A stretch of DNA of 64,000 bases, taken from NCBI GenBank assembly GCA_965140585.1, contig OZ223269.1:1056001-1120000 (forward strand), written 5' to 3'. Source of the DNA: Spirochaetia bacterium. GTDB taxonomy: Bacteria > Spirochaetota > Spirochaetia > UBA9216. The position numbers were made by a program, and so were the translations under genes. Position 1 is the stretch's first letter. Every line of letters begins with the position of its first letter. Below, piece after piece: positions 19,149 through 47,273 of this stretch. The notes under the pieces are model-generated. The model saw only the letters and a list, made by a program, of their open reading frames with translations, was not told the DNA's origin and ran no database searches.

Positions 19149-19667
19149 TCAATTCATAGATATTTTGTAATCTGTTGTACCGTCTGTAATTAATAGGAAC
19201 TTCATTTCTTCATCAAGAACCGTCATCGTGAAACCTTCCGACTCGGAAAATTCAGGGATACCGAACACAAAATCAAGCTCACTGTCTTTCAGCATATACA
19301 GGCTGACCCCCTCTTTGCGCATTGTGCCAAGGAACATAAAACGGTTAGTATTATAAACAGGCTCACTTTCAGGTTCGGATATAATTTCAGTTTGATCTGT
19401 TTTTTGCCGTCCCTCACTGTAGAACATATTAGTCATTTGCAGTGCCGGTATATCAGATTTTTGATTTTCTATTATTTTGGTGGTAATTTCAGCAGAGTCA
19501 TCAGCTTTATTCTGTAAAGATTGAGTAGTGTCTGATTCGATCCTATTTGTTGTATTCCTTTCTACCATAACCTCAGGAGGGAGAATGAAGAGCAGGGTAA
19601 TATATACTGCAGAAGCAGTTATTGCTGTTATCAGGATTGCCTTAATTACCGTTGAAACCTTTGCCAT
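19149..19667 (-). CDS. Hypothetical bitopic membrane protein at the end of the T2SS operon (GspC/PilP-like position)
   Basis: N-terminal TM, low-complexity linker, C-terminal FMFLGTM small beta domain. Confidence 0.45.
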   Translation of the reverse strand: MAKVSTVIKAILITAITASAVYITLLFILPPEVMVERNTTNRIESDTTQSLQNKADDSAEITTKIIENQKSDIPALQMTNMFYSEGRQKTDQTEIISEPESEPVYNTNRFMFLGTMRKEGVSLYMLKDSELDFVFGIPEFSESEGFTMTVLDEEMKFLLITDGTTDYKISMN

Positions 19668-19675
19668 TATTTCTC

Positions 19676-20746
19676 CTAATCAGAGATGATTCTGCTGATA
19701 ATCTGAATCACCCTTTTTCTTTCAATGTAATCAACATCATCCCCCGGTCGATATGATAAACTGATATCTGGAATTTCAGCAATAACTGTTATATATTTTT
19801 TTTCTTCAATGGTTATTTGTATTTCCCAAAACCAGGTTTTGATACCAAGATAATCAAAGATAGGGTGTGAGACATCATCAATCGTAAAGACTGATTTCAG
19901 TTCATCAGTTAAAAACTCTCTGCTTTCCCTGCTTTGAATAATCAAACTGTAAGCTCTATCGGGATAAGGCAGGGGACTGTTTCCAAAATCATATTTGAGG
20001 ATTCTGATCAAAAGTTCTTCAGGTATGAAATGAATATTCATAACCGGAACAGCGCAGATAAAGGGATAAAGCTCATCAATATTGTTTTCCATGATTGTTT
20101 GAAGATTATTGTTTGACAATGCAGTATTATTCATTCTTTCATTTTGAACCTTTCGTCTGAAAGATTCAGAGCCGGAATCATTTCCAGTGCGAATGTTATA
20201 TAACTCAGTAAGCGCCAGTTCATCAGCAATGTTTATATTCATGTAACTTTGTACAGTCGCATATTTTAGAACAGCATCATCCGAAAGAAACTCATCCTGT
20301 ACCCCCAGAAGGCTTGGGAAAAGACCATTATCATGCCGATACTGTTCAAGCTCCGACATGGATTTACCATCTATAAAAAGCAATTTATTAATATCTGTAC
20401 CGTCAATGATTTCATCTCTGAAAAAGTTTAAGTTAACTCTGCTCGAAATACCTATCATCGATACAGAGAAGTCTTCACTATTCAATGATTGTATTCTGTT
20501 CCAAACAGGATCAATAAGAGAATCCGATTCTGGAGAATTATCTTCAAGAATAGCATCAATAATCTCTTCTACAGTATCCTTAACTTTTTTTTCGTTTATA
20601 ATATCTGAAAGCATTGGGACATCTTGTCTTCTGGATGATATTACATATGATAGACCGATAAAAATAATTGACAGAAAAACTATCAGCATAAAAGCATAAG
20701 TGGTTGCAAATCCTTCGGTTAACTTTTCAAGTTTTTTATCAGTCAT
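19676..20746 (-). CDS. GspK-like minor pseudopilin
   Basis: MTDKKLEKLTEG|FATTYAFMLIVFL class III signal lacking E5; SRVNLN and MNINIA motifs. Confidence 0.65.
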   Translation of the reverse strand: MTDKKLEKLTEGFATTYAFMLIVFLSIIFIGLSYVISSRRQDVPMLSDIINEKKVKDTVEEIIDAILEDNSPESDSLIDPVWNRIQSLNSEDFSVSMIGISSRVNLNFFRDEIIDGTDINKLLFIDGKSMSELEQYRHDNGLFPSLLGVQDEFLSDDAVLKYATVQSYMNINIADELALTELYNIRTGNDSGSESFRRKVQNERMNNTALSNNNLQTIMENNIDELYPFICAVPVMNIHFIPEELLIRILKYDFGNSPLPYPDRAYSLIIQSRESREFLTDELKSVFTIDDVSHPIFDYLGIKTWFWEIQITIEEKKYITVIAEIPDISLSYRPGDDVDYIERKRVIQIISRIISD

Positions 20747-21254
20747 CCGAATTTCCATAAACAAGAGAGTGACTGCCGAAAAGTAGCTTATATCTGCATG
20801 CATTCTGATTTGAATCAATTAATATAATTTGTATTCCGCATGTAATTTCATCAATTATCAAAGGTTCAAAATAGCCTATTTTTAAATTATGAAAAACGAT
20901 CTGAGTTTCATCATTTCCTTTAATATTTAAACCTTCTGCAGTAAAAGCGAGTTTGATAACTGAATCTTTACTGCCTTTACTATATGGAAGTTCAATACTT
21001 TTAGATTCACTTTGAAACACAGGATATTCTTCCCAGAATGGTATCTGAATATCATTACATAATTTTTCCAACAGAATATCAGCCTGCACAGCTTCTTTCA
21101 GAAAGATATTCTTTTCCAGGATAGAATTGAAACTGACAAATAACTTCTGTCCACCCATAAACAGCAGCAGAGATGCAAGTGATAGAATAAAAACAGCAAC
21201 AACCGTTTCTGTCAGCGTGAAGCCTTCTTCCAATACGGATAATTTATTCTTCAT
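20739..21254 (-). CDS. Prepilin-type pseudopilin (GspJ-like)
   Basis: EEG|FTLTETVVAVFIL N-methylation motif. Confidence 0.75.
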   Translation of the reverse strand: MKNKLSVLEEGFTLTETVVAVFILSLASLLLFMGGQKLFVSFNSILEKNIFLKEAVQADILLEKLCNDIQIPFWEEYPVFQSESKSIELPYSKGSKDSVIKLAFTAEGLNIKGNDETQIVFHNLKIGYFEPLIIDEITCGIQIILIDSNQNACRYKLLFGSHSLVYGNSDD

Positions 21255-21462
21255 TATAAATAAACTTTCCCGAATCTATTAAATCGTTATTTGTCGCAAT
21301 AAACTCATAGTATGCTGATTCTCGCTTTACCGAGATTTTAATTATAGATGTGTACAAACCGGTTAATGAAATTATAAAGACTGCAATAATAATAACTGCA
21401 ACCAAAGAGTCAAATAAAATATATCCCTCAGTCAAACTATTTGGATGATAACACTTTTTCAA
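21244..21462 (-). CDS. Small pseudopilin-like protein (GspI-like)
   Basis: TEG|YILFDSLVAVIII degenerate class III signal; overlaps both neighbours. Confidence 0.55.
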   Translation of the reverse strand: MKKCYHPNSLTEGYILFDSLVAVIIIAVFIISLTGLYTSIIKISVKRESAYYEFIATNNDLIDSGKFIYNEE

Positions 21463-22006
21463 TTTCCATCTCCAGTCCGCTTAACGGTTCAAGCGAATAT
21501 CCGGACTCTCTTAGCCGGTTCAGATATGTTTGACTATCTATATATTTACCCTGATAAAAACTGCATACCGCTGCAAGATATATCAAAACAGGATCTGCTT
21601 CTGCAATTTTGAAAGCTCTGTCAAGCTGCTGTTGAGCTTTTACATAGTCTCTTTTTTTAATATCAGCTTCAATTGCACTTTTTAAGAAACTTAATGATGA
21701 CATTTTAAGATACATGACCTGTTTGGGATCGAAGAAATCAATATCGGTTTCTATTGTCTCAAAACCGGCTTTTGTAATGCTTACATGATATTTTCCTGAA
21801 TCAAGATCCGGAATAATAAATCGCCCGTCAATATCTGAAGTATATTCTTTATCACTATTAACTGTAACCAACGCTCCTGTGACAGGATTATTATAATTAT
21901 CAAATATGATTCCGGCTAAATTTGCTGGAAAAAAGTTCTTTGGTGCAGATGCACATCCAGTTAAGACGGAAATTAAAATGAGAATTATAATATTTAACTT
22001 TTTCAT
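21437..22006 (-). CDS. Lipoprotein with carboxypeptidase-regulatory-like domain and TPR (possible pilotin role)
   Basis: Lipobox LTG-C; GIIFDNYNNPVTGALV...SDIDGRF...GKYHVSITKAGF; helical TPR-like C-terminus. Confidence 0.65.
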   Translation of the reverse strand: MKKLNIIILILISVLTGCASAPKNFFPANLAGIIFDNYNNPVTGALVTVNSDKEYTSDIDGRFIIPDLDSGKYHVSITKAGFETIETDIDFFDPKQVMYLKMSSLSFLKSAIEADIKKRDYVKAQQQLDRAFKIAEADPVLIYLAAVCSFYQGKYIDSQTYLNRLRESGYSLEPLSGLEMEIEKVLSSK

Positions 22007-22569
22007 TATTTTCTCCCTGTAAAAGAATCGCTGATGATAAAGTTTATCATCAATGCCAAACTGTAATTATTTTTTTCAGAATTATAGCCTAGAGACATCT
22101 GAGCAATATCAATTTTCTTTTGGTATTCATAAAGAAACTGAAGGTATTCCAGTATTTCGTTAATTTTGCCTTCAACGGAAATGTTTATACGTTCAGGATC
22201 TGTAGACTCATTTGTGTTGTAGTTATTTACAATCACTCTTCGATTTTCTGCAGCATCGATGATTAGATTGCAAAACTCATAAAATTTTATATTATCCTCA
22301 TAAAAAAGAGATGTTACAATTTCATTATATCTGTTTTCAGCGTATTCAAATTCTTTAGACAATTTGATGTATTCAGTTTGAAGATCTGACAAGCTGCAAG
22401 TATTTTCCAATTGGGATATTCTGTTGCGACTGCTTTTTATACCGTTTAGATTCCATCCGATAAACAGTATTATCGGGATAAGCAGGGTTAACAAAAGAAT
22501 TCTCAACAGTATTTTTCTATCTCTATACATTAAAATGTCCTGATAATGAAAATCTGAAACCATTATCAT
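22006..22569 (-). CDS. GspM/PilO-like assembly platform protein
   Basis: Single TM, coiled coil, C-terminal INISVEG...ILEYL ferredoxin-like pattern; operon position. Confidence 0.55.
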   Translation of the reverse strand: MIMVSDFHYQDILMYRDRKILLRILLLTLLIPIILFIGWNLNGIKSSRNRISQLENTCSLSDLQTEYIKLSKEFEYAENRYNEIVTSLFYEDNIKFYEFCNLIIDAAENRRVIVNNYNTNESTDPERINISVEGKINEILEYLQFLYEYQKKIDIAQMSLGYNSEKNNYSLALMINFIISDSFTGRK

Positions 22570-23494
22570 TTTCCTGTATCCTCTGAATACTTACATCTGA
22601 AAACAAATTGTTTTTGGATAGACGATCGGATATAACAATCGGGCTTTCACTCTCAGCTTCAACTGAAAAAGTATTTTTTTGAATCGAAATCCTTCTAATT
22701 TTCAAATCATCTCCGACAGTCTCATAGATAGCAATTAATAAACTATAAGGATTGCCGATATCTTCGATACTAAGCGTATCAATTGATGACCGGACTTCCA
22801 AAATCTTTTTTTCAATTTCTGTATTACGATTCTGAAATTGAATAATCTGATTTTGAACGGCAATACGTTTAGAAACTTCATAATCGAGAAGCACTGAATA
22901 TCTGTAACTTGCCCCTCCGATTAGAAAAAGGAGAAGTGCTGTAATAATATAAAAAGAACGAAAACTTACAGCTCTGCTGTCTCTGATCTTTTTGAAACGA
23001 TGGAATTCAGAAAACCGGGGCAGCTTATAAATGTGACCTGGCTCAACTTTAGGAAAATCATAACTCTCCTTTCCATCAATAAATAACCAGCCGGTAATAA
23101 TACCTGGATTTAACAAATCAGGATCATGATAATCTGTCAACATAGATCGAACAGGCGCATTGTCCTTGAATATGATTTTTTCTATAACCTTATCATTTGA
23201 TATACAAAGGATATCAATATCAATTAATTTTACTGATAAATCATGCAGTAGAAAAACAGGAACAAAGGGTTTTTTACTACCGAAATTAATTCCTGTATCC
23301 TTTGTGATAAAAACAATTATTGCCGTTTTCTGATTATACAATCGGTAGGTGTACTCATATGCCCCGTTGTTTCCAGGATAAATTGAATGTATCTTCGAGT
23401 CTATATATTGTTCAGGAGATAAGTTATCTCTGTTCTCCGGGATTTCCAGAAACCGTACATCATAGTCTTCCCTGGATAAAACTTTCTCAGGCAT
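22523..23494 (-). CDS. GspL/PilN-like assembly platform protein
   Basis: Cytoplasmic N-domain, central TM, coiled coil, FSDVSI...FRFSLS C-terminal domain; follows gspG. Confidence 0.55.
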   Translation of the reverse strand: MPEKVLSREDYDVRFLEIPENRDNLSPEQYIDSKIHSIYPGNNGAYEYTYRLYNQKTAIIVFITKDTGINFGSKKPFVPVFLLHDLSVKLIDIDILCISNDKVIEKIIFKDNAPVRSMLTDYHDPDLLNPGIITGWLFIDGKESYDFPKVEPGHIYKLPRFSEFHRFKKIRDSRAVSFRSFYIITALLLFLIGGASYRYSVLLDYEVSKRIAVQNQIIQFQNRNTEIEKKILEVRSSIDTLSIEDIGNPYSLLIAIYETVGDDLKIRRISIQKNTFSVEAESESPIVISDRLSKNNLFSDVSIQRIQENDNGFRFSLSGHFNV

Positions 23495-23934
23495 CAGTTG
23501 TCCCAGGATGTGATATCCTTTTCAAGATTCTCTCCGCCTTCAAGACCGTCCGCACCAAACGATCTTATACCGAAGGGCAGTCCGTTCGGCCCGGGAACTG
23601 TGTATTCGAACTTGTTGCCCCATGGATCATCCGGAACTTCCTTTTCGAGATAAGGACCATTCCAGTCTTCCGGTACAGGTGAGATATTGGTCTTTTTCCA
23701 AAGCGCATCAAGGCCCTGGTCCTGTGTAGGGAACTGTCTGTTATCAAAAAAATAAGAGTTAAGTGCAAGACTCAGGTTTTCAATCTGAGTTCTGGCAGTT
23801 ACGATTTTAGCCTTGTCAATATATTTAAATGCTATAAACCCGACTGAACTTGTTAAGATCAGCACTATCGCTATAACAATGAGTGTTTCAACAAAGGTCC
23901 AGCCTTCTTCAAGTTTTTTCTTTATGTCTTTCAT
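23494..23934 (-). CDS. gspG: Type II secretion major pseudopilin
   Basis: EEG|WTFVETLIVIAI; FPTQDQGLDAL, WNGPYL, DPWGNKFEY, SFGADGLEGG. Confidence 0.93.
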   Translation of the reverse strand: MKDIKKKLEEGWTFVETLIVIAIVLILTSSVGFIAFKYIDKAKIVTARTQIENLSLALNSYFFDNRQFPTQDQGLDALWKKTNISPVPEDWNGPYLEKEVPDDPWGNKFEYTVPGPNGLPFGIRSFGADGLEGGENLEKDITSWDN

Positions 23935-23953: not shown

Positions 23954-25006
23954 TTATGCTATTGTTCCGAACAGGGAAAACAGCGGTACAATGAAATTGA
24001 GTATGAGATAAATTATTATTGCTCCTACTATCACAGTCAGCAGAGGTTCTATAATCCCAAGAAGCCTTGTAGTGAGATTTTCAATCTCTGATTCATAATA
24101 AATCCGAAGCTGTGCAAATACATGCTCAGTCTGACCGGTATTTTCCCCAATACCTATCCACTGAATCATTCGAGGCGGAATTTCCCTGTGAACCGAGAAT
24201 GCCTTGTATAAACCGCGGCCGGAAACCAGCTCCTTATTAACTAAACGGAAAATTTCTTTAAGTGCTTCATTGCTGCAGACTTCCTTTGCTTCCAGGACTG
24301 CAGAAGAGAGTGGAATTCCATGTTTTGTCAGGGTTTCAACAGCAAAGGAAAAATTGAAAATATCTATCGTCTTAATTATATTCGATAGAACAGGGATCTT
24401 TATAAGAAGGCCGTCTGTTGTCCGTTTAAAACCTTCAACATTCTTACGTGTGAAAATTGCAGAGATAAATAGAATAATAAACAAAATAAAAACAGTCCCG
24501 GCAATCTGGAGCCCGGTTATCTTTGCCTGGAAAGATTCGAGCTGCGAACTGTTTCCGGCTATCTCACTGAAAAGCTCTTCGATTTTCGGAATTCCCAGAA
24601 TCATCAGAAAGAAAAGCCCGGTAAACAACATCACAAGTATCATTAAGGGATATATTGATGCATTAATAAACTTGTCATGGACTTTTTTGTTTCTTTCCAG
24701 ATAGGTTTTCAAAGTAGGCAATATGGTAGATAAAGAACCTATTCGATCTCCGATATTTATCAGTCCACTGTATAAGGGAGGCAGAACATAAACACCTTTA
24801 TCAAGCAAACCCGAAAGTGAGTTTCCTTTTTTCAATCCTTCTTCAAGGTAGGTTGTAAGATGCTTTAGTTTATTGCCTGTAGTGAAGCTATTAATCATCT
24901 GTATTGAATTATAAACTGATAGACCGGAGTTCAACAGAAGAGAGAGATTTGATGTAAAATCAAGAAGCTCTTTTGTTTTCAGCTGCCTGTAATTCCGCTT
25001 AATCAT
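23954..25006 (-). CDS. gspF: Type II secretion inner-membrane platform protein F
   Basis: LSLLLNSGL, IGDRIGSL, SIYP, GENTG, IEPLL duplicated T2SSF domains. Confidence 0.88.
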   Translation of the reverse strand: MIKRNYRQLKTKELLDFTSNLSLLLNSGLSVYNSIQMINSFTTGNKLKHLTTYLEEGLKKGNSLSGLLDKGVYVLPPLYSGLINIGDRIGSLSTILPTLKTYLERNKKVHDKFINASIYPLMILVMLFTGLFFLMILGIPKIEELFSEIAGNSSQLESFQAKITGLQIAGTVFILFIILFISAIFTRKNVEGFKRTTDGLLIKIPVLSNIIKTIDIFNFSFAVETLTKHGIPLSSAVLEAKEVCSNEALKEIFRLVNKELVSGRGLYKAFSVHREIPPRMIQWIGIGENTGQTEHVFAQLRIYYESEIENLTTRLLGIIEPLLTVIVGAIIIYLILNFIVPLFSLFGTIA

Positions 25007-26472
25007 ATAACTCTCTCAATTTCTGCGAGGTCAGTGACACCATCAATGGTCTTCTGCAAGCCATTTTTAAACAGCACAGAATATTTTTCTTTTTCTAGTT
25101 GTGCTGCCAGAATATTATTAGGTGAGTTTTTTACTATTAACTCTTCGAGTTCCGGAGATTTTACAAAACATTCTGCAACTGTTGTACGTCCGGAATATCC
25201 TGTGAAGCTGCACTCCGGACATCCCTGATGGTGAAAGCCCGATTCGGTTTCAAGTCCGTATTGTGCATAAATAGATTTTTCTGCTGTAGAGAGTTTTATT
25301 TCTTTCCTGCAGGCTGGGCATAAAACCCTGACAAGCCTCTGAGCAACTGCACCGCGTAGAATTGCCGCGAGCAGGTATGATTCTACTCCCATATTTATAA
25401 GACGATGTACAGATGACACTGCGTCATTTGTATGAAGAGACGAGAGCACAAGATGCCCTGTGAGAGCTGCTCGAACGGCAAGCTGTGCTGTATCGGAATC
25501 CCTTATTTCTCCAACCATAATAATATTCGGATCCTGCCGTAAAACACGTCTGAGCAGGGAATGGAAGGTCAGTCTGATTTCATCGTTCGTCTGAATCTGA
25601 TTAACTCCGTCTATACTGTATTCTACAGGATCCTCAATAGTAACAATTTTATTTGACTGATGATCAAGGTTACGAATAATAGCATTCAGACTGGTCGTTT
25701 TACCGGAACCTGTTGGACCGGTGAACAGTACAAGACCATGCGGCTGATTATAAAGGTGAACAATGTTCTTCTTTACAGATTCGGAAAAACCAAGTTCATC
25801 AATACCAAGAAGTGACCCTTTCCGGTTGAAAAGGCGGAGCACTATCGATTCTCCTCCTGTGATGGGAACAATTGAAAGCCTCATGTCCAGTTCAACCCCG
25901 GCTATACTGACTGAGATTCGGCCGTCCTGTGGCAGCCTTCTTTCCATAATGTTCAAATCTGCCATTATCTTAATACGGCTTGAAACAGGAGAGAAAAATG
26001 CAGCATCGTATTCCATGGCCTGAACCAGCACACCATCTATACGGTAGCGTATTGACAGTCTGTCTGTACGGCCCTCAATATGAATATCTGAAGCCTTTTT
26101 TCGAATGGCTTCAATAAATATAGAGTTGACCAGGTTTATGATTGGAGCATCATCAGTAAAAGTATCTATCTCAATATGCATATCCGGACCGGAAGACGCT
26201 TGATAAGCGTCTGCGCCGGATAGTGCCCGGCCCAAATAAATTGTAAAATCTTCTGGCTCAATCTCAATAAACTCAACAGCTCCACGGTGAAAATCTATTA
26301 TTTCATCAATCAGCTCCTGACTGTACGGATAACATATCCCTGTAATTGATATTCCGTTTTCATTAAGGCCAAGCTTGAGAACTTTATTTTTCTCCATGAA
26401 CTTAACTGCATACTGTTCATTAATAGGCGGGAGGGGTTCGTAATCTTTAATTGCGGCTTTCGGGATGTTCAT
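25003..26472 (-). CDS. gspE: Type II secretion ATPase
   Basis: ASDIHIE, RLPQDGR, TGPTGSGKTTSL, TIEDPVE, LRQDPNIIMVGEIRD, GHLVLSSLHTND, tetra-Cys motif. Confidence 0.93.
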   Translation of the reverse strand: MNIPKAAIKDYEPLPPINEQYAVKFMEKNKVLKLGLNENGISITGICYPYSQELIDEIIDFHRGAVEFIEIEPEDFTIYLGRALSGADAYQASSGPDMHIEIDTFTDDAPIINLVNSIFIEAIRKKASDIHIEGRTDRLSIRYRIDGVLVQAMEYDAAFFSPVSSRIKIMADLNIMERRLPQDGRISVSIAGVELDMRLSIVPITGGESIVLRLFNRKGSLLGIDELGFSESVKKNIVHLYNQPHGLVLFTGPTGSGKTTSLNAIIRNLDHQSNKIVTIEDPVEYSIDGVNQIQTNDEIRLTFHSLLRRVLRQDPNIIMVGEIRDSDTAQLAVRAALTGHLVLSSLHTNDAVSSVHRLINMGVESYLLAAILRGAVAQRLVRVLCPACRKEIKLSTAEKSIYAQYGLETESGFHHQGCPECSFTGYSGRTTVAECFVKSPELEELIVKNSPNNILAAQLEKEKYSVLFKNGLQKTIDGVTDLAEIERVI

Positions 26473-36510: not shown

Positions 36511-39500
36511 GTGAGTGTAAAAATGAAAATATCAGGAAGAATATCAATTATCATAGTTTTATTGTTTCTATCTCTGTCTAATATCCATGCTGCAGCAGGA
36601 AATCTTGAGCTGAGTGTAACAGGAGCTTCCAATAATACAGATGTGTTGAATCCTGCTGAGTATGCAGTAGATGATAGTATACTGACCTATTGGATGCTTT
36701 ATCCTGAAGAAACTGAAGGCTGGTTTGAAATCACTCTTAATGAATTATCATGCATTTATGCAATTGAGCTTTCTGGAACTCTTGATTTAGAAAATATTAT
36801 TAACTTTGAATACGATTCAAACGGAATCTGGAAAAGTTTTCTCAATCACGAACTTACTGCCATTAGCTCGAGTGGCGAATATATTGATGTATCCGCTTAT
36901 AAAATAGTAACCGATAAAATCAGGGTTTATCTGCAAGGTGAAGATACAAGTTACAGCAACATTGAAGATCTTAAGGTTTTTGGTGAGAGTTTTTCTGATA
37001 CATATCATAAATTTAACATAAAAAACATTAGCGGAGAAGAAAACATCTTCCACCCCTTATCAAACCTGTCAGATGAGAACACAAAAACTTATTGGGAAAC
37101 AGAAAGTATAGGGAACTGGGTGATAAATTTACTTCGCGGGGCAAGAAACTGGATTACAGAATGCTTTGAGAACGGAAACTTTAATTTTAGAAACCAGGAT
37201 ACGATGTGGAAAAATGAAAATGGTGCGGTGATTAGCTTACAGAGCTCATCTAAAATATATCGAATTAAAGCCTATCTTTCTGAAGATTATACCGGAGACG
37301 CCAGAATTAATTACCTGGCTGATGGTGAATGGACAGAAATTACAGTAATTGAAGAGGAGAATATAACTCCAGGCTGGCATATTATTGATATACCGTATGG
37401 TTTGGAAGCTGATTCAATTCAATTAATTTCTGATAAAACCAGTAGCACAGGCAGTTGGTGGTCATGGCTTTTCGGTTCCGACTCATCAGAAATTTCAGGA
37501 CTTTGTGAAATTGAATTCTGGGGTAAATCATATAGTCCTGTAACTGAGGCTCTAGCATTTTTCATCGAAGATACAGATTTAAACTCAGGGTTGAATGGCA
37601 TTTTTGATGCGTCTATATCTGATAATTATAAGGTTGAATTTATTCTGAATGTTAATTCCGGAAACTGTATAATTGCTGAAATAAACGGGAATCAGATTCA
37701 AGTTCCTCTATTAAAAGAAACAGATGGAGCCTTTTTTTATCAGGTTAAAATTGATAATGATTTACTTTGGAATGGAGACAACTTCCTAAGACTTGAGTCC
37801 CTTGACAATCATCTTATCCGCGGTTCAATTTCCGGTATTTCAAGAACGGGCATTCTTAACAATATTGGAGTACCGGATTATTTTACAGCAGATTCAACCG
37901 GTTATTATGAGATCGATCTTAATTCGGAAATTTCACTTGAAGAAGTTCTATTGACAACTAATAATATTTTCAATGAGAGGATTTTTTACAGATCAGAAAA
38001 TCAATGGTTTGAATTAACCTGGAGCGCGTTAACTTCTCATACATTAAAATATTCGGTTTATCTTTCAGAATCAGGAAATAATGTTAACCTGTCAGCTGAT
38101 TGCATACGAATTGAAGGATTGACATCGGGAACGCAATACGGGGTTACAGTTAAAGGCAGTAGAATAACCGATAGTGCTCCGCAGATTCAAATGTATTGGC
38201 CAAAAAATGGTGAAGTTATTGAACAAAGCAAACTCGGTACAATGTTCGCGGTAGGTTATGTCGATGATGAGAATGCTGTTATCAGTCTTAATGATGAAGA
38301 GGCACAGAATATCGGTAACCTTTTCTGGATTGCAAATATGCCGGGTAATATTATCACAGACGGTGAATATGCACTTCATATATCTGCAACGGATTTAGAA
38401 GGAAGGACCACTGAGAAAACTATATATTGGTCAAATATTGACAGCAATGTCTATAGTTGTGATCTGAGTGAAGAAATTATTTATACTCTTGATGATACAA
38501 TCAAAGTAGAAGGAAGGACTAATCCCTCAGCTTCTGTATATATCAATGAAGAAATAGTTGACGGCAGCAGCCGGCTCTATTCTAAAGATGTAGAACTTAT
38601 TCCGGGACTTAATATTATTACGATTAAATTCGTTCATCGGACACAGGGTATATTCGCACTGCTTCAGAGGCGGGTCTTCCTTGTCACAACAGAACCTGTT
38701 CTTGAAATTAGCAAGCCTGACGATATCGATTATACATCAGCACAGCAGATTGATTTGACAGGTATTTTATCAGTTGCCGGAGCATACGAAATTGAATGCG
38801 AAGATTATGAAGTGCAAGATGATGGAACTTTGTTTACTGTTGCTTCAGTAAGTCTTGTAAGTGGAGTCAATAATAATATTATAGTAACTTTGACGGATCA
38901 ATTCGGGAGAACTTCTACCGACAGCGTATCTGTTTTCTGTGATGTAAATACTCCGGTGTTAACAGGTTTATCACCGGAAAGAGGTTCAATACTATCTGAA
39001 AGTGTAAATACTTTTGTAATCACAGTCTCAGATGAAAGTGAGCTTTCAGTTTTTATGAATGGTTTGGTAGTACCCGGAGGAAGCGGAATATTTGAAAAGA
39101 CAATCTCTCTTTCAGACGGGTTTTATTCACTTCCCCTGGTTTTAAAGGATCAGGCTGGAAATACTAGGCAGGATTATCTTGATTATACAGTGGATACTGT
39201 ACCACCGGTTGATTTTACAGTTGATGTAACACCTGCCGGTTGGACTTCTGATAATCATCCTGTAATCAGTTTTAAAACGACGGATGCCACATCCGGTATT
39301 GATTACTACGAGATATCAATTGATGAAGGCAGCTACTATGTAATTAAAAGCCCGTACCAGCTGCCTGTTCAGGATGAAGGTGAGCACACAATTGCTGTTA
39401 GAGCTGTAGATAAAGCAGGACATATGACATATTCATATGCCGAAACAAAAACCGATACAATTCTACCCGAAGCTCTTACAACTTTCGATATAATTCCTGG

Positions 39501-42500
39501 AAATGCTGAGCTTAATCTATATTGGTCTGACGGTGAATCCGATGTAATTTCATATGAAATTATTAGAAGTCCTCAATGGGATGATGGAGAACAGCTTTGC
39601 ATTTCAAGAAGAGAAGATAATCAGGTATTTACCGATACCGAAGTATTAAACGGCTTTGAATATTCCTACAAAGTACGTGCTGTTGATCGTGCAGAGAATA
39701 AGAGCGGTTTTACCGCTACGATAAATGCTGTACCGGGTATTGAAACACAGGTTATTCCTGACAGCGGAAAGGTAAAAGCCGAGTATGAAACATCTGTGCT
39801 GTTTATAAATACAGAAAGCCTGCCTCCGGATGCTCAAAGTATACGAATAGCTGAACTTGCACCGGATTGGATAGAAGCTGAAGCCTTGAATTTTGAACAT
39901 ACTTTTGTTGGTTCGGTATACGATTTCACTCTGCTCGACAGTAATGATGAAGAAACCTCGCCTGGAATACTTTTTTCAGAATCCTATATAGGTGTACTAG
40001 ATTATGATCCTTCATTGCTACCATCCGGTTATTCTGAAGAAAACATCAGTGTTTACAGCTTTGATAAAAGATGGGGTAGATGGAGCAAACTGAAAAACTG
40101 TGCTGTAGATCCGGAGAACAATAAGGTTGTATTCAGTTCAAATCACTTTTCGCTCTATACTCCAGTCGCAGATTCCGTGGAAGATATTTCACCTGAGGAA
40201 ATCGCTGATTCAGGATATTCTCCATTTGGAACATATGTAAATCACGAAGGTTTCACCGTCAGTCCGCAGGGAGGGAATGCACATACTAGCGTTACTGAAC
40301 TTGTTTTAAGTGGACCCAATGGGTTTGATTTTGAACTTAAACGTTACTATGATCTTTCGGTTGCAAAAAGCGATACCCATGCGGACGTCCCTGTAGATGT
40401 AGTGAAATATCTTGAAAACCAGGGAGACTATGCTTATTCAATGGGGAATGGGTGGCGATTAAATCTTCCTTATATAAAGAATGCATCAGCTCAGCAATAT
40501 CTTATTATGCCTGATGGAAGTATGTTTGGTTTTAAATCGCTTCAATTAACGAATACTCCCGCTAAATCAGATAAGCGAAGCCTTATACTTGAATCACATA
40601 GCGGTGAACATTTCTCATTATTAGTCACACAGACGGAAAATGACAAAGAGGTATATTTTATTGGAGCAGGAGGCTCTAGTGAACAAAGCTGGATTAGTAC
40701 CTCATATACACTTACTCTGACAGATGGAAAACAATATATATTTGATGGAAAAGGAAGAACCACAGAAATTAAAAGCAGCGATGAAGAGTTTTCAATCAGT
40801 GTCAGCTATGCAAGTGGCAGCTATGAAATTGATAAAATATCAGATTCAGTTGGCCGATATCTTTCCTTTGAATATGCTGAAACTTCTGATTCTATAGATA
40901 TGCCATACATAAAAAAAATAAGTCTTGATTCAGCAGATCCATATAGAAGAAGCATCAGCTACACTCAGGAAAACGGTTACCTTATCTCTTCAATTGATAC
41001 TGGAGGAAGAAACTGGTCCTATGGATATGGCAATGAATATTATGTCGGAGGACCCAAAAATCCAGTCCCATTCAGTCTAACCGAAGCTCTTAAAGAATTT
41101 AATGATGATACAGATTTATATGATATTATTTCAAATCTGGCCGAACCAGTATCAGAATATACATACAAACCACTGTCAACAATCGAAGGTCCTGGTATGG
41201 GCAGAATTGAAGCAACATACGATACTGTTCATCCTAGTGACGATGAAAACGCATATTGCAGAGTTCTGACAAAGCAGGTAACTGTTTACAATGATTATGC
41301 TGCAGGAAGTGACGACAGTGTTAGAGCAACTATGTACGATTATGATTTTACAGATGCTGATAGTGACTACGGCTATTACATTTCAAAAAGTATTGTTGAT
41401 GAACTTAATCACAATAGATATATCGCATATAATTATGAATTCAAAAAACTAACAAAGACCTACTGGAGCGAGGAAGATGGAATCATCACTTCAGAAACAA
41501 TAGAAGATGATGAAAATTCAGGAAGCCGTTTTAATAATGAAAAATGGTATGAGAAAATAAATAACAGCAGCTCAAATTTAAAACTATTAAAAACAAAAAC
41601 TAAAAGCTATGCCGAAGAGACTGATGTAAATCCGTCATCCGAAAAAATAACACATGGTTTAGGAAATGATAGTATAACTACCAATTACACTTATGATGAT
41701 TGGGGTAATAGAACGGTAATTGAAGAGACTTCAGTTGCGGGTTCACGAGTACGTAAAAATATCACTTACCGTGACTATTCCAGCGGTGAAAGTGCATCAG
41801 GAGCTTCATATAAAGAATATTCTGAATCAGGACTTATAAATGAAAACGTGCCTGCCCGAATAAAGAATCTTGTAATTAAAGAACAAGTTACTAACTATAC
41901 TCCCTTAATTGACTCATTAGGGACAGGTGGTAATAATGCGGGAACTGCTGTGAAAGCATACAATTATTATTCATACGATGATAAGGGCAGACTAAACGGA
42001 AAATCGGTTTGGGACTCTTCAAATAATGTATGGAATAAAACTTTATATACTTGGAACAGTGCAGGGGACCTTTCCTCAATTACAGATTCTGAAAATCATG
42101 TTACATCATTCACCTATGATGCTAATCATTATATTTTAACCAAGACAGAAAAAGCTGTTACCGATGCTGATGGAAATCCGACTGATATAAAGTGGCAGTA
42201 TAAATATAATTACGCTGGATGGTTGATAAGTGAAACCGATCCCCGACAGAAGACTACTACAACAGCCTTTGACAAACTGGGTAGGGTTGTATCAAAAACA
42301 GAACCCGGAGACGCGGGGGACAACTATATCATCAATGTTTTTTACAATGATATTCCTGGACTATTGTATTCAACAATGACGGATTCACTTGGAAGAAAGA
42401 TTGTCAGAGAATATAACGATCTATCACAGATGGTTAAGCAGAGCAGCTACCTGGATTCAGCTACTGCATCTGTTATAGAGCTTGGATATGATCGCTTCGG

Positions 42501-45500
42501 AAAAGTAACAAAGATGATTAATCCCAATGCCGGTATGACAGATGCTGGTGATATACATGAGTATGTAACCTGGTACAGATATAATGCTCTTGGACGACTA
42601 AGCGAGATTTCATATCCATACAGGACATCAACTGGGGCTGTTTCAAAAACTATGGATTATAACTACGATACAAATACTCTCACCATCACGGATGAAGAAA
42701 ATAATCAAAGCACCGAAATCTATGATATGAGAGGAAATGTTATAAAGAAAAGTCAGGTTGTTGATGATGAAACAATCATTACTGAATTCTGGTATGACGG
42801 ACTTGGAAATCTGATTGCACAGGAAGGTCCATATCCTGACGCCGTAATAACAAAAAAATATAACAGTCTGAATCAATTAGTAAAACTGAGTATGCCTCTG
42901 AATACATTTTACGAAGGAGGCTCTATTGATACCAGTATCGCAATACGTCCTGTAACCGAATATTTTTATGACAGCAAGGGCAACAATGTTAAAGAAACAA
43001 GGATGTCCTCTGAAGGAATAAGGATCATAAAAAAACAATACGATGAACTTGGAAGAATTATAAAGATAAAGAACTTTCTTGATGATGAACAATTAAATGA
43101 AGAGTTTATCTACTATGACGAAAATGGAAATGTTACACGTAAAATTGATCCGAACGGATGTGAAACATCCTACACTTACACACCTGGGAACAATGTTGAG
43201 ACAGAGACAGATGCAGAACATGGTGTAACAAGCTATGAATACTATGATGACGGACTTGTCAAGTCAGCAGTAGACCCAAGAGGAAACAGCGGTAATTACC
43301 CGTCTCTTGATTTCAAAGTGACTTATGAATATGACAAGCTTAAAAGACTTTCTCGAGTTGAGCTTCCTCCCAAGAATGACGGAGGAGCAAGGACTTCTGT
43401 ATATTTTGAATACGATTTAAGAGGTAATTTAGTAAAGCAGACCGATGTAGACGGTCTTGTTACAGAATATAAGTATACACCTAGACAATGGGTGGAACAG
43501 AAAAGCATAACGGGTGATGGAAAGAGTTACATCACTTCCAATGAATATAACAGAAGAGGTAAACTTAAAAAAATTACTGATCCAAGAAATCAGAGTACAA
43601 ACATGGATTATGATGAACTCGGACGATTGATATATTCAAGAACCTCAGAGAATACAATAAACAGATTTGATTATGATGAAGCAGGGAATATTATTGAAAA
43701 AAAGTGGTATGGTAGAGACGGAATCAATGTAATTCAAATTTCCCAGAAGTTTGAATATGATCCTTACCAAAGACTAATAAAACAATTCGCCCCTGTTAAA
43801 TCTGAAGAAACAAGCGTTATTATTGAAAAAGCATACGGTTATGACAGATTCGGTAATATGAGCTTTGAAACAGATGCGCTTGGAAACAGTATCATATACA
43901 GTTATGACAGTCTGAACCGACTTGTCAGAGAGGAATCAGATGCCGGATTCTTAAAAGAATTTGATTATGATTATGGAGGGAGGCTCATTGAAAATGTTGA
44001 TTCAAACGGTAATAGAAGCATTTATCTCTATGATGATCGCGGACTTCTTTTAAGCAGAAACATCACCGGACCAAATGGAGAAAAATCTGTTACTTTTGCA
44101 TATGATGAAGCAGGCGAGGTAAAATGGTCATCTGATGATGACGTTTTTACCGGGTACAACGGAGCTGTCTCCACATCACCGGAATCCTATCTACCGGATG
44201 TATATGGAAGGATAAATTCAGTTGAAACGAGTATGGATGGTAAATCTTTCAATACATTTTATGAATATAATCCGTCGGATTTGGTGACTGGTATTACATC
44301 CCCTGATGGTGGAAGAGTTGGTTACAATTATAACCTTCTTGGTGAGTTACAATCAATAGAAGGCTATATAGATTCTGCACCCGTATATGATGCCGTAGGC
44401 TTGATAAAATCTATTACTGCATCAAACGGTGTATGCCTTTCACTGGAATATGATGGAGAAAGCCGACTTACGTCGAGGATATTCAGTGGTCAGGAGGCTG
44501 AGTATGTTAAAAAATATTCGCTTGATTATGATGAAGCAGGTAATATTTCTGACCTGATAAAAAATGATTCTGCTTTTGCAAGTACATATAATTATGATCT
44601 GAATAACAGACTATTATCGGATTACCTGAGAGAAGATTTCGCGGTCAATCCTGAAAATACATCTAATCAGGAAACACTTTATATCGAAGCAGATGATGTG
44701 AACGGTCAGAATATACTGGTTGAAACTAAGGGGACAGAAATCTTTCTTGACTATGCAGCTGGAAGTATTGGTGTTGATCTGAACGGAAACTACAAGGTAG
44801 CAAGAATTGAACTTACATCGAAGGATAAAACACGTGTAAAGGCTGAGAACCTGAGGGTATTCGTAAGTGATGACAATACTGAAAACAGTTATGCGGAACA
44901 GAAGGATTTTACCGTCAATGACGCTGAAACCGGCGGATTTGAAATAACACTTAAAAAACTTGTAAAAACCCGCTATATCAAAGTCATGACTGATTTCAAT
45001 GAAAGGGATATTGATTATACCCCTCTTAGAACCTTAAGCGAATTCAAAGGATCTCCGGAAGACATTCTAAAAATATATCATTATGTATCGCTTAGAAATG
45101 AAACATATTCATACGATGATGCAGGCAACAGGACAAGTCTTGATGTCTCATATACCGGAAACAGTACAGACTTTGGAACTATTTCCAATACTTACCTTTA
45201 TTATCCGAAGACAAACCGTCTTATTACGGATGGTAATTACTCCTTTCAGTATGATGCAAACGGGAATATGACAGCAAAAGGAAAATCCCTTATTGTTGAC
45301 AGCATTGTAGTTTCGGTCTCTGCTATGACAGACTGGAGCAGCTTTTCTGACAGCACATCAGGTATAACTTTCTCTGATAGCGATGAATTATGGAATTACA
45401 GCTATGATGTTCTGAACCGTTTAATTCGAGTATCAAAGAACGGGACAATAGTGGCGTCCTATACTTATAATGCTGATGGATTACGTGTTAAAAAAGAAAA

Positions 45501-46560
45501 GGAAGAAAGAACTGACTATTATGTATTCGATCTTAACGGAAATGTCCTCTATGAAGAGAAATTTAATTCTACCTGGTCAAAATATATTTATATAAAAACT
45601 ACGAAATTTGCCCGTGAAGATGGTATAGTAGGAGAAGCAATGAGTAAAAAGTACTATTACCATACAGATCATCTTGGTTCAACAGTCATGATAACAGATG
45701 AAGAAGCTGATGTTATATGGGATTGTGAATATACACCCTTCGGTGAATTAAATAACAAGCAGAATTTTGCAGAGCAAAAAACACAGTTCACAGGAAAAGA
45801 CTTTGATCCTGACACAGGCCTTTATTACTACAATGCCAGATGGTATGACCCGAATCTGGGTAGATTCACTACAGAAGACCCCATAAGAGACGGCCTAAAC
45901 TGGTACATCTACGCTAACAATAATCCGCTGAAGTTTGTTGACCCGACTGGGTTGGCGCCAAGGAATTTATCATACGAGGAACGTAAAGCTTACATAGATA
46001 GTATAAAATCTTGGACTAATAATAATTTGGCTAAAAACTACAGTGATTATCAATGTGCAGGACTGACAACAGTTGTAGCTAATGAAGCAATGAAGGCATC
46101 TACAGGAAACTCAGAGTATTTTAAAGAATTAACTCATAATGGTAATAATCTTACTGACTTAAAAGGGTCTCAACCAATAGCTGCTGATTTTGCCCCAAAT
46201 ACATCTGATGCCAAAAATAATATCTCTTATTATAAAGATGGTTCTGGAAACAACTATACTGATATTAAACAAGCATTTGAAGATGGAATCATTGAGCCTG
46301 GAACTATTGGTGTTTTTGGCTCCAATTCTCCAGATGAATATAGTGGACATGTTTTTACAGTACAGAATATTCGAGAAGAAGACGGTGTTATAACAATGGA
46401 TATTATTGAAGGCCATTCAGCAGAAGGGAGATCTTCAGAAATTTCTAAAAATATAACCATAGATAATTTTCAAGAGTATATCGATAATACTGGTGAATTT
46501 TATGGTTTTGGTGAAATTGGTGTTGGGAGTGCATTAGAACAACCTCCCGAGGGGCCGTAA
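36511..46560 (+). CDS. Signal-peptide RHS/YD-repeat polymorphic toxin: discoidin, Ig-like and FN3 N-terminal region, RHS core, Cys/His amidase-like C-terminal tip
   Basis: Many YD..GR repeats; YYYHTDHLGST, FTGKDFDPDTGLYYYNARWYDPNLGRFTTEDP, NPLKFVDPTG; N-terminal Sec signal ending NIHA. Confidence 0.92.
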   Translation: MSVKMKISGRISIIIVLLFLSLSNIHAAAGNLELSVTGASNNTDVLNPAEYAVDDSILTYWMLYPEETEGWFEITLNELSCIYAIELSGTLDLENIINFEYDSNGIWKSFLNHELTAISSSGEYIDVSAYKIVTDKIRVYLQGEDTSYSNIEDLKVFGESFSDTYHKFNIKNISGEENIFHPLSNLSDENTKTYWETESIGNWVINLLRGARNWITECFENGNFNFRNQDTMWKNENGAVISLQSSSKIYRIKAYLSEDYTGDARINYLADGEWTEITVIEEENITPGWHIIDIPYGLEADSIQLISDKTSSTGSWWSWLFGSDSSEISGLCEIEFWGKSYSPVTEALAFFIEDTDLNSGLNGIFDASISDNYKVEFILNVNSGNCIIAEINGNQIQVPLLKETDGAFFYQVKIDNDLLWNGDNFLRLESLDNHLIRGSISGISRTGILNNIGVPDYFTADSTGYYEIDLNSEISLEEVLLTTNNIFNERIFYRSENQWFELTWSALTSHTLKYSVYLSESGNNVNLSADCIRIEGLTSGTQYGVTVKGSRITDSAPQIQMYWPKNGEVIEQSKLGTMFAVGYVDDENAVISLNDEEAQNIGNLFWIANMPGNIITDGEYALHISATDLEGRTTEKTIYWSNIDSNVYSCDLSEEIIYTLDDTIKVEGRTNPSASVYINEEIVDGSSRLYSKDVELIPGLNIITIKFVHRTQGIFALLQRRVFLVTTEPVLEISKPDDIDYTSAQQIDLTGILSVAGAYEIECEDYEVQDDGTLFTVASVSLVSGVNNNIIVTLTDQFGRTSTDSVSVFCDVNTPVLTGLSPERGSILSESVNTFVITVSDESELSVFMNGLVVPGGSGIFEKTISLSDGFYSLPLVLKDQAGNTRQDYLDYTVDTVPPVDFTVDVTPAGWTSDNHPVISFKTTDATSGIDYYEISIDEGSYYVIKSPYQLPVQDEGEHTIAVRAVDKAGHMTYSYAETKTDTILPEALTTFDIIPGNAELNLYWSDGESDVISYEIIRSPQWDDGEQLCISRREDNQVFTDTEVLNGFEYSYKVRAVDRAENKSGFTATINAVPGIETQVIPDSGKVKAEYETSVLFINTESLPPDAQSIRIAELAPDWIEAEALNFEHTFVGSVYDFTLLDSNDEETSPGILFSESYIGVLDYDPSLLPSGYSEENISVYSFDKRWGRWSKLKNCAVDPENNKVVFSSNHFSLYTPVADSVEDISPEEIADSGYSPFGTYVNHEGFTVSPQGGNAHTSVTELVLSGPNGFDFELKRYYDLSVAKSDTHADVPVDVVKYLENQGDYAYSMGNGWRLNLPYIKNASAQQYLIMPDGSMFGFKSLQLTNTPAKSDKRSLILESHSGEHFSLLVTQTENDKEVYFIGAGGSSEQSWISTSYTLTLTDGKQYIFDGKGRTTEIKSSDEEFSISVSYASGSYEIDKISDSVGRYLSFEYAETSDSIDMPYIKKISLDSADPYRRSISYTQENGYLISSIDTGGRNWSYGYGNEYYVGGPKNPVPFSLTEALKEFNDDTDLYDIISNLAEPVSEYTYKPLSTIEGPGMGRIEATYDTVHPSDDENAYCRVLTKQVTVYNDYAAGSDDSVRATMYDYDFTDADSDYGYYISKSIVDELNHNRYIAYNYEFKKLTKTYWSEEDGIITSETIEDDENSGSRFNNEKWYEKINNSSSNLKLLKTKTKSYAEETDVNPSSEKITHGLGNDSITTNYTYDDWGNRTVIEETSVAGSRVRKNITYRDYSSGESASGASYKEYSESGLINENVPARIKNLVIKEQVTNYTPLIDSLGTGGNNAGTAVKAYNYYSYDDKGRLNGKSVWDSSNNVWNKTLYTWNSAGDLSSITDSENHVTSFTYDANHYILTKTEKAVTDADGNPTDIKWQYKYNYAGWLISETDPRQKTTTTAFDKLGRVVSKTEPGDAGDNYIINVFYNDIPGLLYSTMTDSLGRKIVREYNDLSQMVKQSSYLDSATASVIELGYDRFGKVTKMINPNAGMTDAGDIHEYVTWYRYNALGRLSEISYPYRTSTGAVSKTMDYNYDTNTLTITDEENNQSTEIYDMRGNVIKKSQVVDDETIITEFWYDGLGNLIAQEGPYPDAVITKKYNSLNQLVKLSMPLNTFYEGGSIDTSIAIRPVTEYFYDSKGNNVKETRMSSEGIRIIKKQYDELGRIIKIKNFLDDEQLNEEFIYYDENGNVTRKIDPNGCETSYTYTPGNNVETETDAEHGVTSYEYYDDGLVKSAVDPRGNSGNYPSLDFKVTYEYDKLKRLSRVELPPKNDGGARTSVYFEYDLRGNLVKQTDVDGLVTEYKYTPRQWVEQKSITGDGKSYITSNEYNRRGKLKKITDPRNQSTNMDYDELGRLIYSRTSENTINRFDYDEAGNIIEKKWYGRDGINVIQISQKFEYDPYQRLIKQFAPVKSEETSVIIEKAYGYDRFGNMSFETDALGNSIIYSYDSLNRLVREESDAGFLKEFDYDYGGRLIENVDSNGNRSIYLYDDRGLLLSRNITGPNGEKSVTFAYDEAGEVKWSSDDDVFTGYNGAVSTSPESYLPDVYGRINSVETSMDGKSFNTFYEYNPSDLVTGITSPDGGRVGYNYNLLGELQSIEGYIDSAPVYDAVGLIKSITASNGVCLSLEYDGESRLTSRIFSGQEAEYVKKYSLDYDEAGNISDLIKNDSAFASTYNYDLNNRLLSDYLREDFAVNPENTSNQETLYIEADDVNGQNILVETKGTEIFLDYAAGSIGVDLNGNYKVARIELTSKDKTRVKAENLRVFVSDDNTENSYAEQKDFTVNDAETGGFEITLKKLVKTRYIKVMTDFNERDIDYTPLRTLSEFKGSPEDILKIYHYVSLRNETYSYDDAGNRTSLDVSYTGNSTDFGTISNTYLYYPKTNRLITDGNYSFQYDANGNMTAKGKSLIVDSIVVSVSAMTDWSSFSDSTSGITFSDSDELWNYSYDVLNRLIRVSKNGTIVASYTYNADGLRVKKEKEERTDYYVFDLNGNVLYEEKFNSTWSKYIYIKTTKFAREDGIVGEAMSKKYYYHTDHLGSTVMITDEEADVIWDCEYTPFGELNNKQNFAEQKTQFTGKDFDPDTGLYYYNARWYDPNLGRFTTEDPIRDGLNWYIYANNNPLKFVDPTGLAPRNLSYEERKAYIDSIKSWTNNNLAKNYSDYQCAGLTTVVANEAMKASTGNSEYFKELTHNGNNLTDLKGSQPIAADFAPNTSDAKNNISYYKDGSGNNYTDIKQAFEDGIIEPGTIGVFGSNSPDEYSGHVFTVQNIREEDGVITMDIIEGHSAEGRSSEISKNITIDNFQEYIDNTGEFYGFGEIGVGSALEQPPEGP

Positions 46561-46562
46561 AT

Positions 46563-47273
46563 ATGAAATTAAAAATTATTTTAATTATTTTTCTTTTTAA
46601 TATTTCTTTAGCTTATAGTGATGAAATCATAGATTATAAAAATACGGATACTGTCTATTGTGAATCTATTATCAAATGTGGCCCAGATTATCTGGGCATA
46701 TATTCATATGGCAAGGAAAATGAGGAGAAAAATAAGTATAAATCATTAGTAATCGCTTTCGATAAAGATAAAAATGTCTTTGATTCTGAAATGATCACTT
46801 ATATGAGGGATGACCAAAACTATATCTTTACTAATGATAAATATATAATTTTGAGAATACACTTCCCTAATACTTCTACTCCTCATTTCTTGATATTCTC
46901 ATCGGAGACACAAAAAATCTCTGTAATATCTTCTGAATTACCTTGGGTTGCACAATTTTTCGTTTATAAAAATATACTTTACTATTCTTCTTATAAAGGG
47001 GCACCAAATATTAATTATATAGATTTAAATACTGGTATGAGATTTAAATATAAAGATTTTTATATCCCAGGTGCGAGTTTTGTTGTTGAAGACAATGAAG
47101 TATATGCTGTATGCAATAGTAGATATCCAAAGACAGCATTTTTAATAGATGAAGATGGTATTAAGAAAGTTGATAAGTCTTTTGAGACTAACTATAACAA
47201 CATTCGATTAGATGAATATGTAGTTGAAGAATATATCCCTTTTGAAGAATTAAGGTATAAACCTTCTTTATAA
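46563..47273 (+). CDS. Exported protein, putative cognate immunity protein
   Basis: Starts 2 nt after the RHS stop; signal peptide MKLKIILIIFLFNISLAYS; very AT-rich like the tip. Confidence 0.65.
   Translation: MKLKIILIIFLFNISLAYSDEIIDYKNTDTVYCESIIKCGPDYLGIYSYGKENEEKNKYKSLVIAFDKDKNVFDSEMITYMRDDQNYIFTNDKYIILRIHFPNTSTPHFLIFSSETQKISVISSELPWVAQFFVYKNILYYSSYKGAPNINYIDLNTGMRFKYKDFYIPGASFVVEDNEVYAVCNSRYPKTAFLIDEDGIKKVDKSFETNYNNIRLDEYVVEEYIPFEELRYKPSL

Follow-up and report, generated by a model that had tools for sequence, protein, structure and literature searches.

A spirochaete type II secretion subfamily genetically linked to giant RHS polymorphic toxins

We analysed a 64,000-nucleotide stretch (the window) of the genome of a Spirochaetia bacterium (assembly GCA_965140585.1, contig OZ223269.1, positions 1,056,001 to 1,120,000), in which an operon for a type II secretion system (T2SS) lies divergent from genes for a PKD protein and a 3349-aa RHS protein (Table 1). 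The secretin of this operon belongs to a clade that recurs beside giant RHS proteins in other spirochaetes, and we propose that this T2SS subfamily probably serves, in the main, to take giant RHS toxins exported by Sec across the outer membrane or to display them on the surface. We infer export by the T2SS from gene linkage only; the linkage itself is beyond chance, since the unit recurs both on a second contig of the source genome (C7) and across the phylum. The original prediction had this T2SS dedicated to exporting the RHS protein. As the export route of a Sec-exported giant RHS, the T2SS is well supported by comparative genomics, whereas its dedication to that cargo meets exceptions in both directions, namely genomes with an RHS and no intact secretin and genomes with a T2SS and no RHS.

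The source genome (G000, 98.5% complete) contains the unit twice. Contig C7 carries the same eleven T2SS genes, the A24 prepilin peptidase, a divergent partner gene and a 3339-aa RHS, and together with the window it accounts for all secretins and all GspE, GspF and GspG genes found in the genome. Identity between the two loci is 94% for GspG, 83% for the secretin, and 65% for the RHS up to residue 3148. The similarity of the two RHS proteins ends at DPTG, after which both the tips and the next genes are unrelated, and tip exchange at DPxG is shown at the level of sequence. An orphan core-plus-tip is also present on contig C1. Each of the three RHS tip cassettes of the genome is followed by a double-hairpin element (in the window, at C7:598794 and at C1:254923) that occurs nowhere else in it; the copies are 82-91% identical, the fold has a z of -3.1, and Rfam gave no match. 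The element and the conserved core could form homology arms for tip exchange, with the element as the second arm. Based upon its YD repeats, DPxG core, exchangeable tip and variable next gene, we class the RHS protein as a putative polymorphic toxin.

To define the extent of this linkage, we surveyed 401 genomes of the phylum, with membership of the secretin clade set at E 1e-49 or better and a full-length RHS defined as an RHS core in an open frame of at least 1900 aa. The clade is present in 35 of the 401 genomes, with a partial match in one more. The comparison within the taxonomic class of the source organism used 78 genomes of families f2-f12, of which f10 and f12 were placed in the class by their numbering. 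In this set, 25 genomes carry the clade, and a full-length RHS is found in 16 of these as against 1 of the 53 without it (Fisher test, p 2e-9, which is not usable as a probability because related genomes are not independent). The RHS adjoins the secretin in 14 of the 16: its core lies 2-21 kb away in 13, and in the fourteenth (G260) the RHS begins within the operon and runs off the contig. The two unlinked cases have the RHS on another contig (G359) or 3.2 Mb away from a broken T2SS (G332). The original prediction stood to fall if T2SS clusters were usually unlinked to RHS genes; within this class adjacency is the usual arrangement. RHS cores occur in 14 of the 53 genomes lacking the clade, none of which has any secretin; a full-length frame is present in G065 alone, and the frames are short in the other 13 (G030 has a split gene).

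Outside the class, the RHS is linked at 27 kb in G044, large RHS frames lie on other contigs in the fragmented assemblies G032, G120, G134, G175 and G104, and no RHS core was seen in G048, G162, G176 and G077. As a control, we took nine genomes in which a secretin of another clade and an RHS have positions on one contig, and eight of the nine pairs are 75 kb to 1.26 Mb apart. In the ninth, G057, the two are adjacent (L178/L179, G057:C81): an HFS-type RHS stands immediately beside a secretin from outside the clade studied here, which comes with ATPase and platform genes of its own, and secretin and RHS may have been paired independently in this case. In other spirochaete classes (L171-L175, L182-L185, L189, L190), related giant RHS proteins start with lipoprotein-like signals and follow lipoproteins of about 500 aa, and no secretin is present in the stretches read.

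A scan of named loci overlaps with the genome survey, and the two sets of counts are not summed. Among the best 80 of 139 such loci, an RHS gene lies within 10 kb in 22, RHS-partner genes alone in 20 more, and neither in 38, of which 26 have less than 19 kb of sequence. The 10-kb limit undercounts, as L079 and L093 are both linked when read further. Named carriers include Treponema putidum ATCC 700334 (L104), T. socranskii ATCC 35535 (L115) and Breznakiella homolactica (L093), and an Oceanispirochaeta bin (L079) shares the divergent layout of the window. Records titled Lachnospiraceae, Clostridia and Eubacteriales (L111, L130, L135) contain the clade as well; these are metagenome bins, and mis-binning or transfer may account for them.

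Three unrelated RHS architectures accompany the secretin clade. Class A, to which the window belongs, is Ig-rich at its N-terminus, contains an HFS module and is paired with a beta-helix partner, whose gene stands immediately before the RHS gene. Class B combines SpvB, FG-GAP and TcdB-mid domains with an HFT module and is accompanied by four accessory proteins; class C has DUF6531 and a clostripain-family lipoprotein. At class C loci (for example L029:9390-10754), this clostripain-family (C11) lipoprotein precedes an RHS without the HFS module, and it may perform N-terminal processing of the class C proteins in trans. The RHS lies downstream of the operon at most loci and divergent from it at L086, L101, L146 and L161. 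A quick tree was built from the C-terminal halves of 84 secretins. It places 27 of the 29 class B rows in one clade (support 98) and 16 of the 18 class C rows in another (support 100); class A rows are spread over the tree, and B and C are mixed in one small clade. The tree fits co-divergence of secretin and cargo with occasional cargo swaps; shared ancestry alone would also cluster the labels.

The machine encoded in the window is a near-complete T2SS. The secretin, ATPase and platform pass Pfam cut-offs, with NCBIfam equivalog cut-offs for GspD, GspE and GspF not reached, and GspG exceeds its TIGR01710 cut-off, bearing out the secretin, ATPase, GspF, GspG and own prepilin peptidase of the original prediction. 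Its three minor pseudopilin-like and its L/M-like genes hold up less firmly: the J-, I- and L-like assignments have weak domain matches, the K-like gene is placed by position and N-terminus, and the M-like gene by a homologue in the same position at another locus. No GspH-like gene was seen in the window copy. The family of the conserved lipoprotein within the operon is retained even at loci that have lost the motor, and we infer a pilotin-like role for it. Block G+C is mostly 0.30-0.43 compared with about 0.36-0.47 in the flanks, so composition weakly sets the block apart, and a promoter scan gave consensus matches and nothing further.

The giant RHS protein consists of a signal peptide, an N-terminal part with F5/8- and Ig-like domains, a ZU5-like HFS module, the YD shell, the DPxG protease core and a polymorphic tip. 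The shell and core match solved RHS structures (E to 4e-32). A crude hydropathy scan found charged and then hydrophobic N-termini on the partner, the RHS and the gene after the RHS, in agreement with the predicted Sec-type signal peptides on the first two; the predicted divergence of this PKD-RHS pair from the T2SS is likewise confirmed. As had also been claimed, the RHS lacks a recognised export domain, in that Pfam and NCBIfam scans gave no match to PAAR, VgrG, WXG/LXG or two-partner secretion (TPS) domains. The H and F of the HFS motif are invariant in 8 of 8 class A and B proteins aligned. PF00791 (ZU5) matches three of the eight HFS-module members (best E 5.5e-4), the window protein not being one of them; on this ZU5 question an Atlas lead of 0.85 was noted, and a PDB sequence search with the module gave nothing useful. 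The protein encoded directly after the RHS (46563-47273) returned itself alone in a homologue search and is a candidate periplasmic immunity protein.

Several observations weigh against the proposed export route. Two complete genomes, G094 and G347, have the T2SS and no RHS core, G210 has tips only, and no RHS was found in G048; G134 and G120 have theirs on contigs other than that of the secretin. Conversely, the complete genome G065 has two intact RHS genes and no secretin, and in the complete genome G332 the intact RHS is the one 3.2 Mb from a broken T2SS. A T2SS is in view at 2 of 17 metagenome class A partner-RHS loci, many of which are short. Giant RHS proteins of other taxonomic classes lie away from the secretin, and all five such genomes tested have one. 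In G347, the T2SS neighbours a divergent gene for a 4977-aa signal-peptide Ig-repeat protein (L023:2510-17443) with no RHS following; this protein was considered as an RHS and rejected, since it has no RHS repeats. In addition, related genomes do not count as independent cases, and the inheritance of a single island as a whole accounts for part of the linkage. Finally, a substrate of 370 kDa far exceeds the usual T2SS cargo.

A further challenge comes from a reduced form of the system. In four genomes of genus g2, the secretin is intact but only 400 aa long; it has its own signal peptide, is without the N-terminal periplasmic domains and is placed between two accessory genes directly upstream of the RHS. 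Secretins of this short form, set among RHS accessory genes, are found at L025/L026, L047, L048, L049, L104 and L105, of which L104 is the T. putidum record. GspE, GspF and GspG are absent genome-wide from the four g2 genomes and from G065 (controls gave matches), and thus a pseudopilus cannot be needed there. That the secretin has been kept, trimmed and relocated suggests that it is the part that the RHS needs. G065, a fifth g2 genome, has however lost the short secretin and kept both RHS genes, and the g2 lineage may instead be decaying. The system as a whole could represent a distinct toxin-delivery route, in which a secretin family is specialised for RHS shells and the motor-less short secretin of oral and animal treponemes, with four accessory proteins, passes the giant RHS or its tip alone; we regard this as possible but rather doubtful. 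A related explanation is that the RHS shell docks under the secretin with its partner proteins and that the released tip alone passes through, a pseudopilus being helpful and dispensable. The g2 genomes, the same layout in the T. putidum record and the small size of the tip (only about 22 kDa) speak for this, but the long adhesin-like Ig and F5/8 regions of the RHS are sensible only outside the cell, and the loss of the short secretin from G065 again counts against it. We consider passage of the tip alone unlikely.

Alternatively, the T2SS could be a general exporter of large surface proteins such as adhesins and hydrolases, for which RHS proteins are a frequent cargo or a mobile-island hitch-hiker, and the RHS may exit by general lipoprotein translocation, vesicles or lysis. 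Such a role would accommodate the T2SS loci without an RHS (G094, G210, G347, G048), the intact RHS genes without an intact secretin (G065, G332), the insertion sequence (IS) genes that flank the C7 locus (their identity being judged from sequence), and the lipoprotein-like signals of RHS proteins encoded away from the secretin in other classes. Against this, the linkage persists through changes of gene order and across three RHS classes, secretin subclades track the RHS class, and the RHS frames of same-class genomes without the secretin are short in 13 of 14. A general exporter is, in our judgement, improbable. Near the window operon, and convergent with it, lies a lipoprotein gene (16459-18960) with two CHB_HEX_C domains and, judged from sequence, a papain-like C-terminal region; it is absent at the C7 locus and is a possible second cargo.

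We give very little credence to a further model, in which the machine builds a short type IV-like filament that holds the RHS and its partner at its end and serves in contact-dependent delivery or in adhesion. In its favour, T2SS and type IV pili have common parts (PMC6668835, in its available portion) and the partner and RHS N-terminus are adhesin-like; against it, the major pilin passes the GspG cut-off, a pilin is missing from the motor-less lineage, and no PilT-like second ATPase was found in the source genome at E 0.01, where the two GspE copies were the sole matches. On the last point and the GspG score, a type IVa pilus was rejected. Export by a type VI secretion system (T6SS) was also rejected, as the RHS has no PAAR or VgrG domain and no T6SS genes are found in the source genome (VgrG and TssC gave no match, controls did).

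The tip of the window RHS starts after DPTGL and belongs to a family of 24 proteins. We aligned 17 of these with the query (18 rows); an RHS core precedes the tip in most of them. The His is invariant in 18 of 18 rows, the Cys is found in each of the 15 rows that extend over its position, and an E/Q-G motif follows. CHAP matches 9 of the 18 (best E 1.2e-6). A model built from the alignment reached a pLDDT of 93 and replaced a single-sequence fold with a pLDDT of 42. Its closest structural matches were MagC (Z 9.0, rmsd 3.5, 153 aligned; VIA), the endolysin Ly7917 (Z 8.8, rmsd 3.9, 139 aligned; VIA) and MepS (Z 8.4), followed by further CHAP/NlpC-P60 enzymes; these top matches are almost all cell-wall hydrolases at Z 8-9, which are middling values in a consistent list. 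Foldseek with the same model gave nothing below E 0.001 (best E 0.016), and PDB sequence searches with the tip gave nothing useful. The papain-like fold also serves other substrates, as seen in the lower rows of the structural match list. The best reading of the model and alignment is that the window tip is a putative peptidoglycan hydrolase.

Peptidoglycan targeting, which the original prediction assigned to the system, fits this tip and does not extend to the system as a whole, because the C7 tip is unrelated and five of 27 tips match cell-wall families. In the scan of these 27, four matched YkuD, one NlpC/P60, one a C39-like family and one M91, with one match above a curated cut-off; four had unrelated weak matches and 16 had none. 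For the C7 tip (C7:597785-598354, L002:13785-14354), searches of Pfam, NCBIfam and the PDB gave no match; the 70 residues at its C-terminus are reminiscent of BECR-type RNase tips, and the gene after it has no clear signal peptide. Among 29 RHS proteins examined, 24 have a parsable tip and next gene, and the next gene encodes a hydrophobic N-terminus in 18 of these 24, one of them doubtful.

Taken together, these data lead us to the following model for the proposed T2SS export of giant RHS toxins. The partner and the RHS would pass through the inner membrane via Sec and fold on reaching the periplasm, where the DPxG core would cut off the 22-kDa tip, to be retained inside the shell, and the exported immunity protein would protect the wall of the producer. 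The secretin and pseudopilus would then bring the RHS, folded and probably accompanied by its partner, to the surface, and HFS cleavage would release the shell from the adhesive N-terminal part. On reaching a neighbour, the tip of the window copy would cut peptidoglycan cross-links, with other copies bearing other tips. Tip enclosure and self-cleavage are carried over by analogy from known RHS proteins.

The gap between the A24 peptidase gene and the PKD partner gene is about 100 bp at C7 compared with 3.9 kb in the window, and the 3.9-kb stretch is therefore an insertion outside the conserved unit. It contains a helix-turn-helix (HTH) gene, a truncated M23-like fragment (29554-30282), a signal-peptide SH3b protein (30285-31427), a GxxExxY nuclease gene and a short Ig-like fragment. 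The original prediction had seen a second tip with an exported-protein cassette here. The open reading frame at 29554-30282 was rejected as an RHS orphan tip, since no remnant of an RHS core lies upstream and its homologues carry the M23-like domain in non-RHS proteins: five longer homologues (618-1544 aa) match through a C-terminal M23-like domain, none of the five has an RHS annotation, and the Pfam RHS repeat is absent from the three scanned. An upstream HxxxD-type motif, present in the three homologues read, is missing from the window copy. The fragment and the SH3b protein that follows it (29554-31427) are what is left of another secreted system. The block ends on the right (47413-48020) with an HTH antitoxin-like gene and a G+C-rich palindromic stretch.

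Table 1. Features of the T2SS-RHS locus, in window coordinates.
Position	Strand	Feature	Basis
19149..19667	-	GspC-like protein, N-terminal membrane anchor (weak assignment)	Conserved locus family; one member T2SSC E 0.07
19676..20818	-	GspK-like minor pseudopilin	Position, pilin-like N-terminus, homologues in most loci; no Pfam match
20739..21254	-	GspJ-like minor pseudopilin	N_methyl E 0.0047; TIGR02532 E 0.0078
21244..21462	-	GspI-like minor pseudopilin, 72 aa	ComGE E 7e-4; conserved family
21437..22006	-	Conserved lipoprotein, carboxypeptidase-regulatory-like domain and TPR	Present in most related loci
22006..22569	-	GspM-like protein	Family; same-position operon gene of another locus, T2SSM E 0.008
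22523..23494	-	GspL/PilN-like protein	PilN E 0.008
23494..23934	-	GspG major pseudopilin	TIGR01710 123.5 bits (cut-off 88.85); PF08334 5e-34
23954..25006	-	GspF inner-membrane platform	PF00482 1.4e-38
25003..26472	-	GspE ATPase, Walker A, two CxxC	PF00437 2.4e-126; best NCBIfam TIGR02533, below cut-off
26469..28640	-	GspD secretin, spirochaete clade	PF00263 2.6e-30, PF03958, STN; clade survey
28735..29151	-	A24 prepilin peptidase	PF01478 1.6e-6, above cut-off
29227..32609	.	Inserted debris, absent from the C7 paralogue	Domain scans, comparison with C7
33032..36505	+	Class A partner, 1157 aa: signal peptide, Ig/PKD, conserved C-terminal beta-helix-like domain	
36511..46560	+	Giant RHS protein, 3349 aa	RHS_repeat 3.8e-66; TIGR03696 above cut-off
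40144..40152	+	HFS motif (H1212-F-S), predicted N-terminal self-cleavage site	
45955..46560	+	Toxin tip, 201 aa, about 22 kDa, CHAP/NlpC-P60 papain-like fold; C3182, H3280, E3300	
46563..47273	+	Signal-peptide protein of no family, 236 aa	Position, N-terminus
47290..47425	.	Double-hairpin element, about 140 bp	After each of the three RHS tip cassettes of the source genome

The locus names a candidate exit machine for the signal-peptide RHS toxins of two-membrane bacteria, one that is linked to three classes of RHS in spirochaetes from the gut, the mouth and sediments. If the proposed export is true, the T2SS would gain a role in polymorphic-toxin warfare, its cargo size limit would be raised, and nature would offer a minimal secretin that works without a motor. 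We found no description of an RHS-linked T2SS in the literature searched, which excluded subscription papers and supplements (Additional File 1 of Zhang et al. 2012 could list such loci); here and below, statements on cited papers refer to their available portions. A T2SS has been noted in Spirochaetes, its cargo not being given there (Denise et al. 2019, PMC6668835). Long genes with YD repeats, and "no complete secretion systems", are on record for treponemes (PMC3747143, PMC8049484). The latter survey, for example, reports RHS/YD genes and no complete secretion system in T. pedis and T. denticola, and in a T. denticola microarray table the YD genes and their neighbours are down-regulated together in a mutant (PMC7586716).

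Among known RHS toxins, the T6SS effectors (RhsA, RhsP, Tse5, Tre23) and the Tc B/C subunits share the YD shell and DPxG core with the window protein, which differs from the T6SS effectors in its signal peptide, in being more than twice the size and in having no PAAR or VgrG domain and no T6SS genes found alongside. WapA and bacterial teneurin-like proteins are likewise Sec-exported shells with adhesive N-termini, polymorphic tips and immunity genes (PMC13018210); that 2026 paper, in its available text, reports no obvious delivery machinery, whereas at our locus the neighbouring genes encode a candidate for one. Zhang et al. 2012 (PMC3482391) treat "T2SS" as the general secretory pathway, separate from dedicated systems, list it for lineages including spirochaetes, and tie ZU5-SpvB RHS toxins to a TcdB/TcaC-like route. 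Their signal-peptide and ZU5-SpvB toxins have an N-terminal self-cleaving ZU5 before the RHS repeats, where ours has a ZU5-like module that is predicted to self-cleave, and both have polymorphic tips, but no RHS-linked secretin cluster is described in the accessible part of that paper. The nearest precedent for RHS export via a T2SS, on the available part of the report, is Bcn-A of Xanthomonas perforans, an RHS bacteriocin that needs the general T2SS: a mutant in the secretin gene xpsD has lost the activity (PMC7259588). Both are RHS/YD proteins with an immunity gene (a candidate one in our case), Bcn-A being antibacterial; it differs in its length of 1398 aa and in that its secretin belongs to a general T2SS which also exports two proteases, and the accessible part of that report describes no RHS-linked T2SS cluster, ZU5 module or partner.

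The classical T2SS (Gsp/Xcp/Out) shares with the spirochaete machine a secretin, GspE, GspF and GspG, a prepilin peptidase and co-encoded Sec cargo, and probably the minor pseudopilins and L/M proteins, to which the spirochaete machine has candidate counterparts. A second, cargo-linked T2SS is itself familiar from Hxc of Pseudomonas. The spirochaete system differs in its divergent secretin clade, its extra conserved lipoprotein, the lack of a visible GspH-like gene in the window copy, a linked cargo that is a polymorphic toxin of 200-390 kDa, and the reduction to a short secretin in one lineage. We regard the system as a variant on the known T2SS, in which one subfamily is coupled to RHS polymorphic toxins in many spirochaetes.

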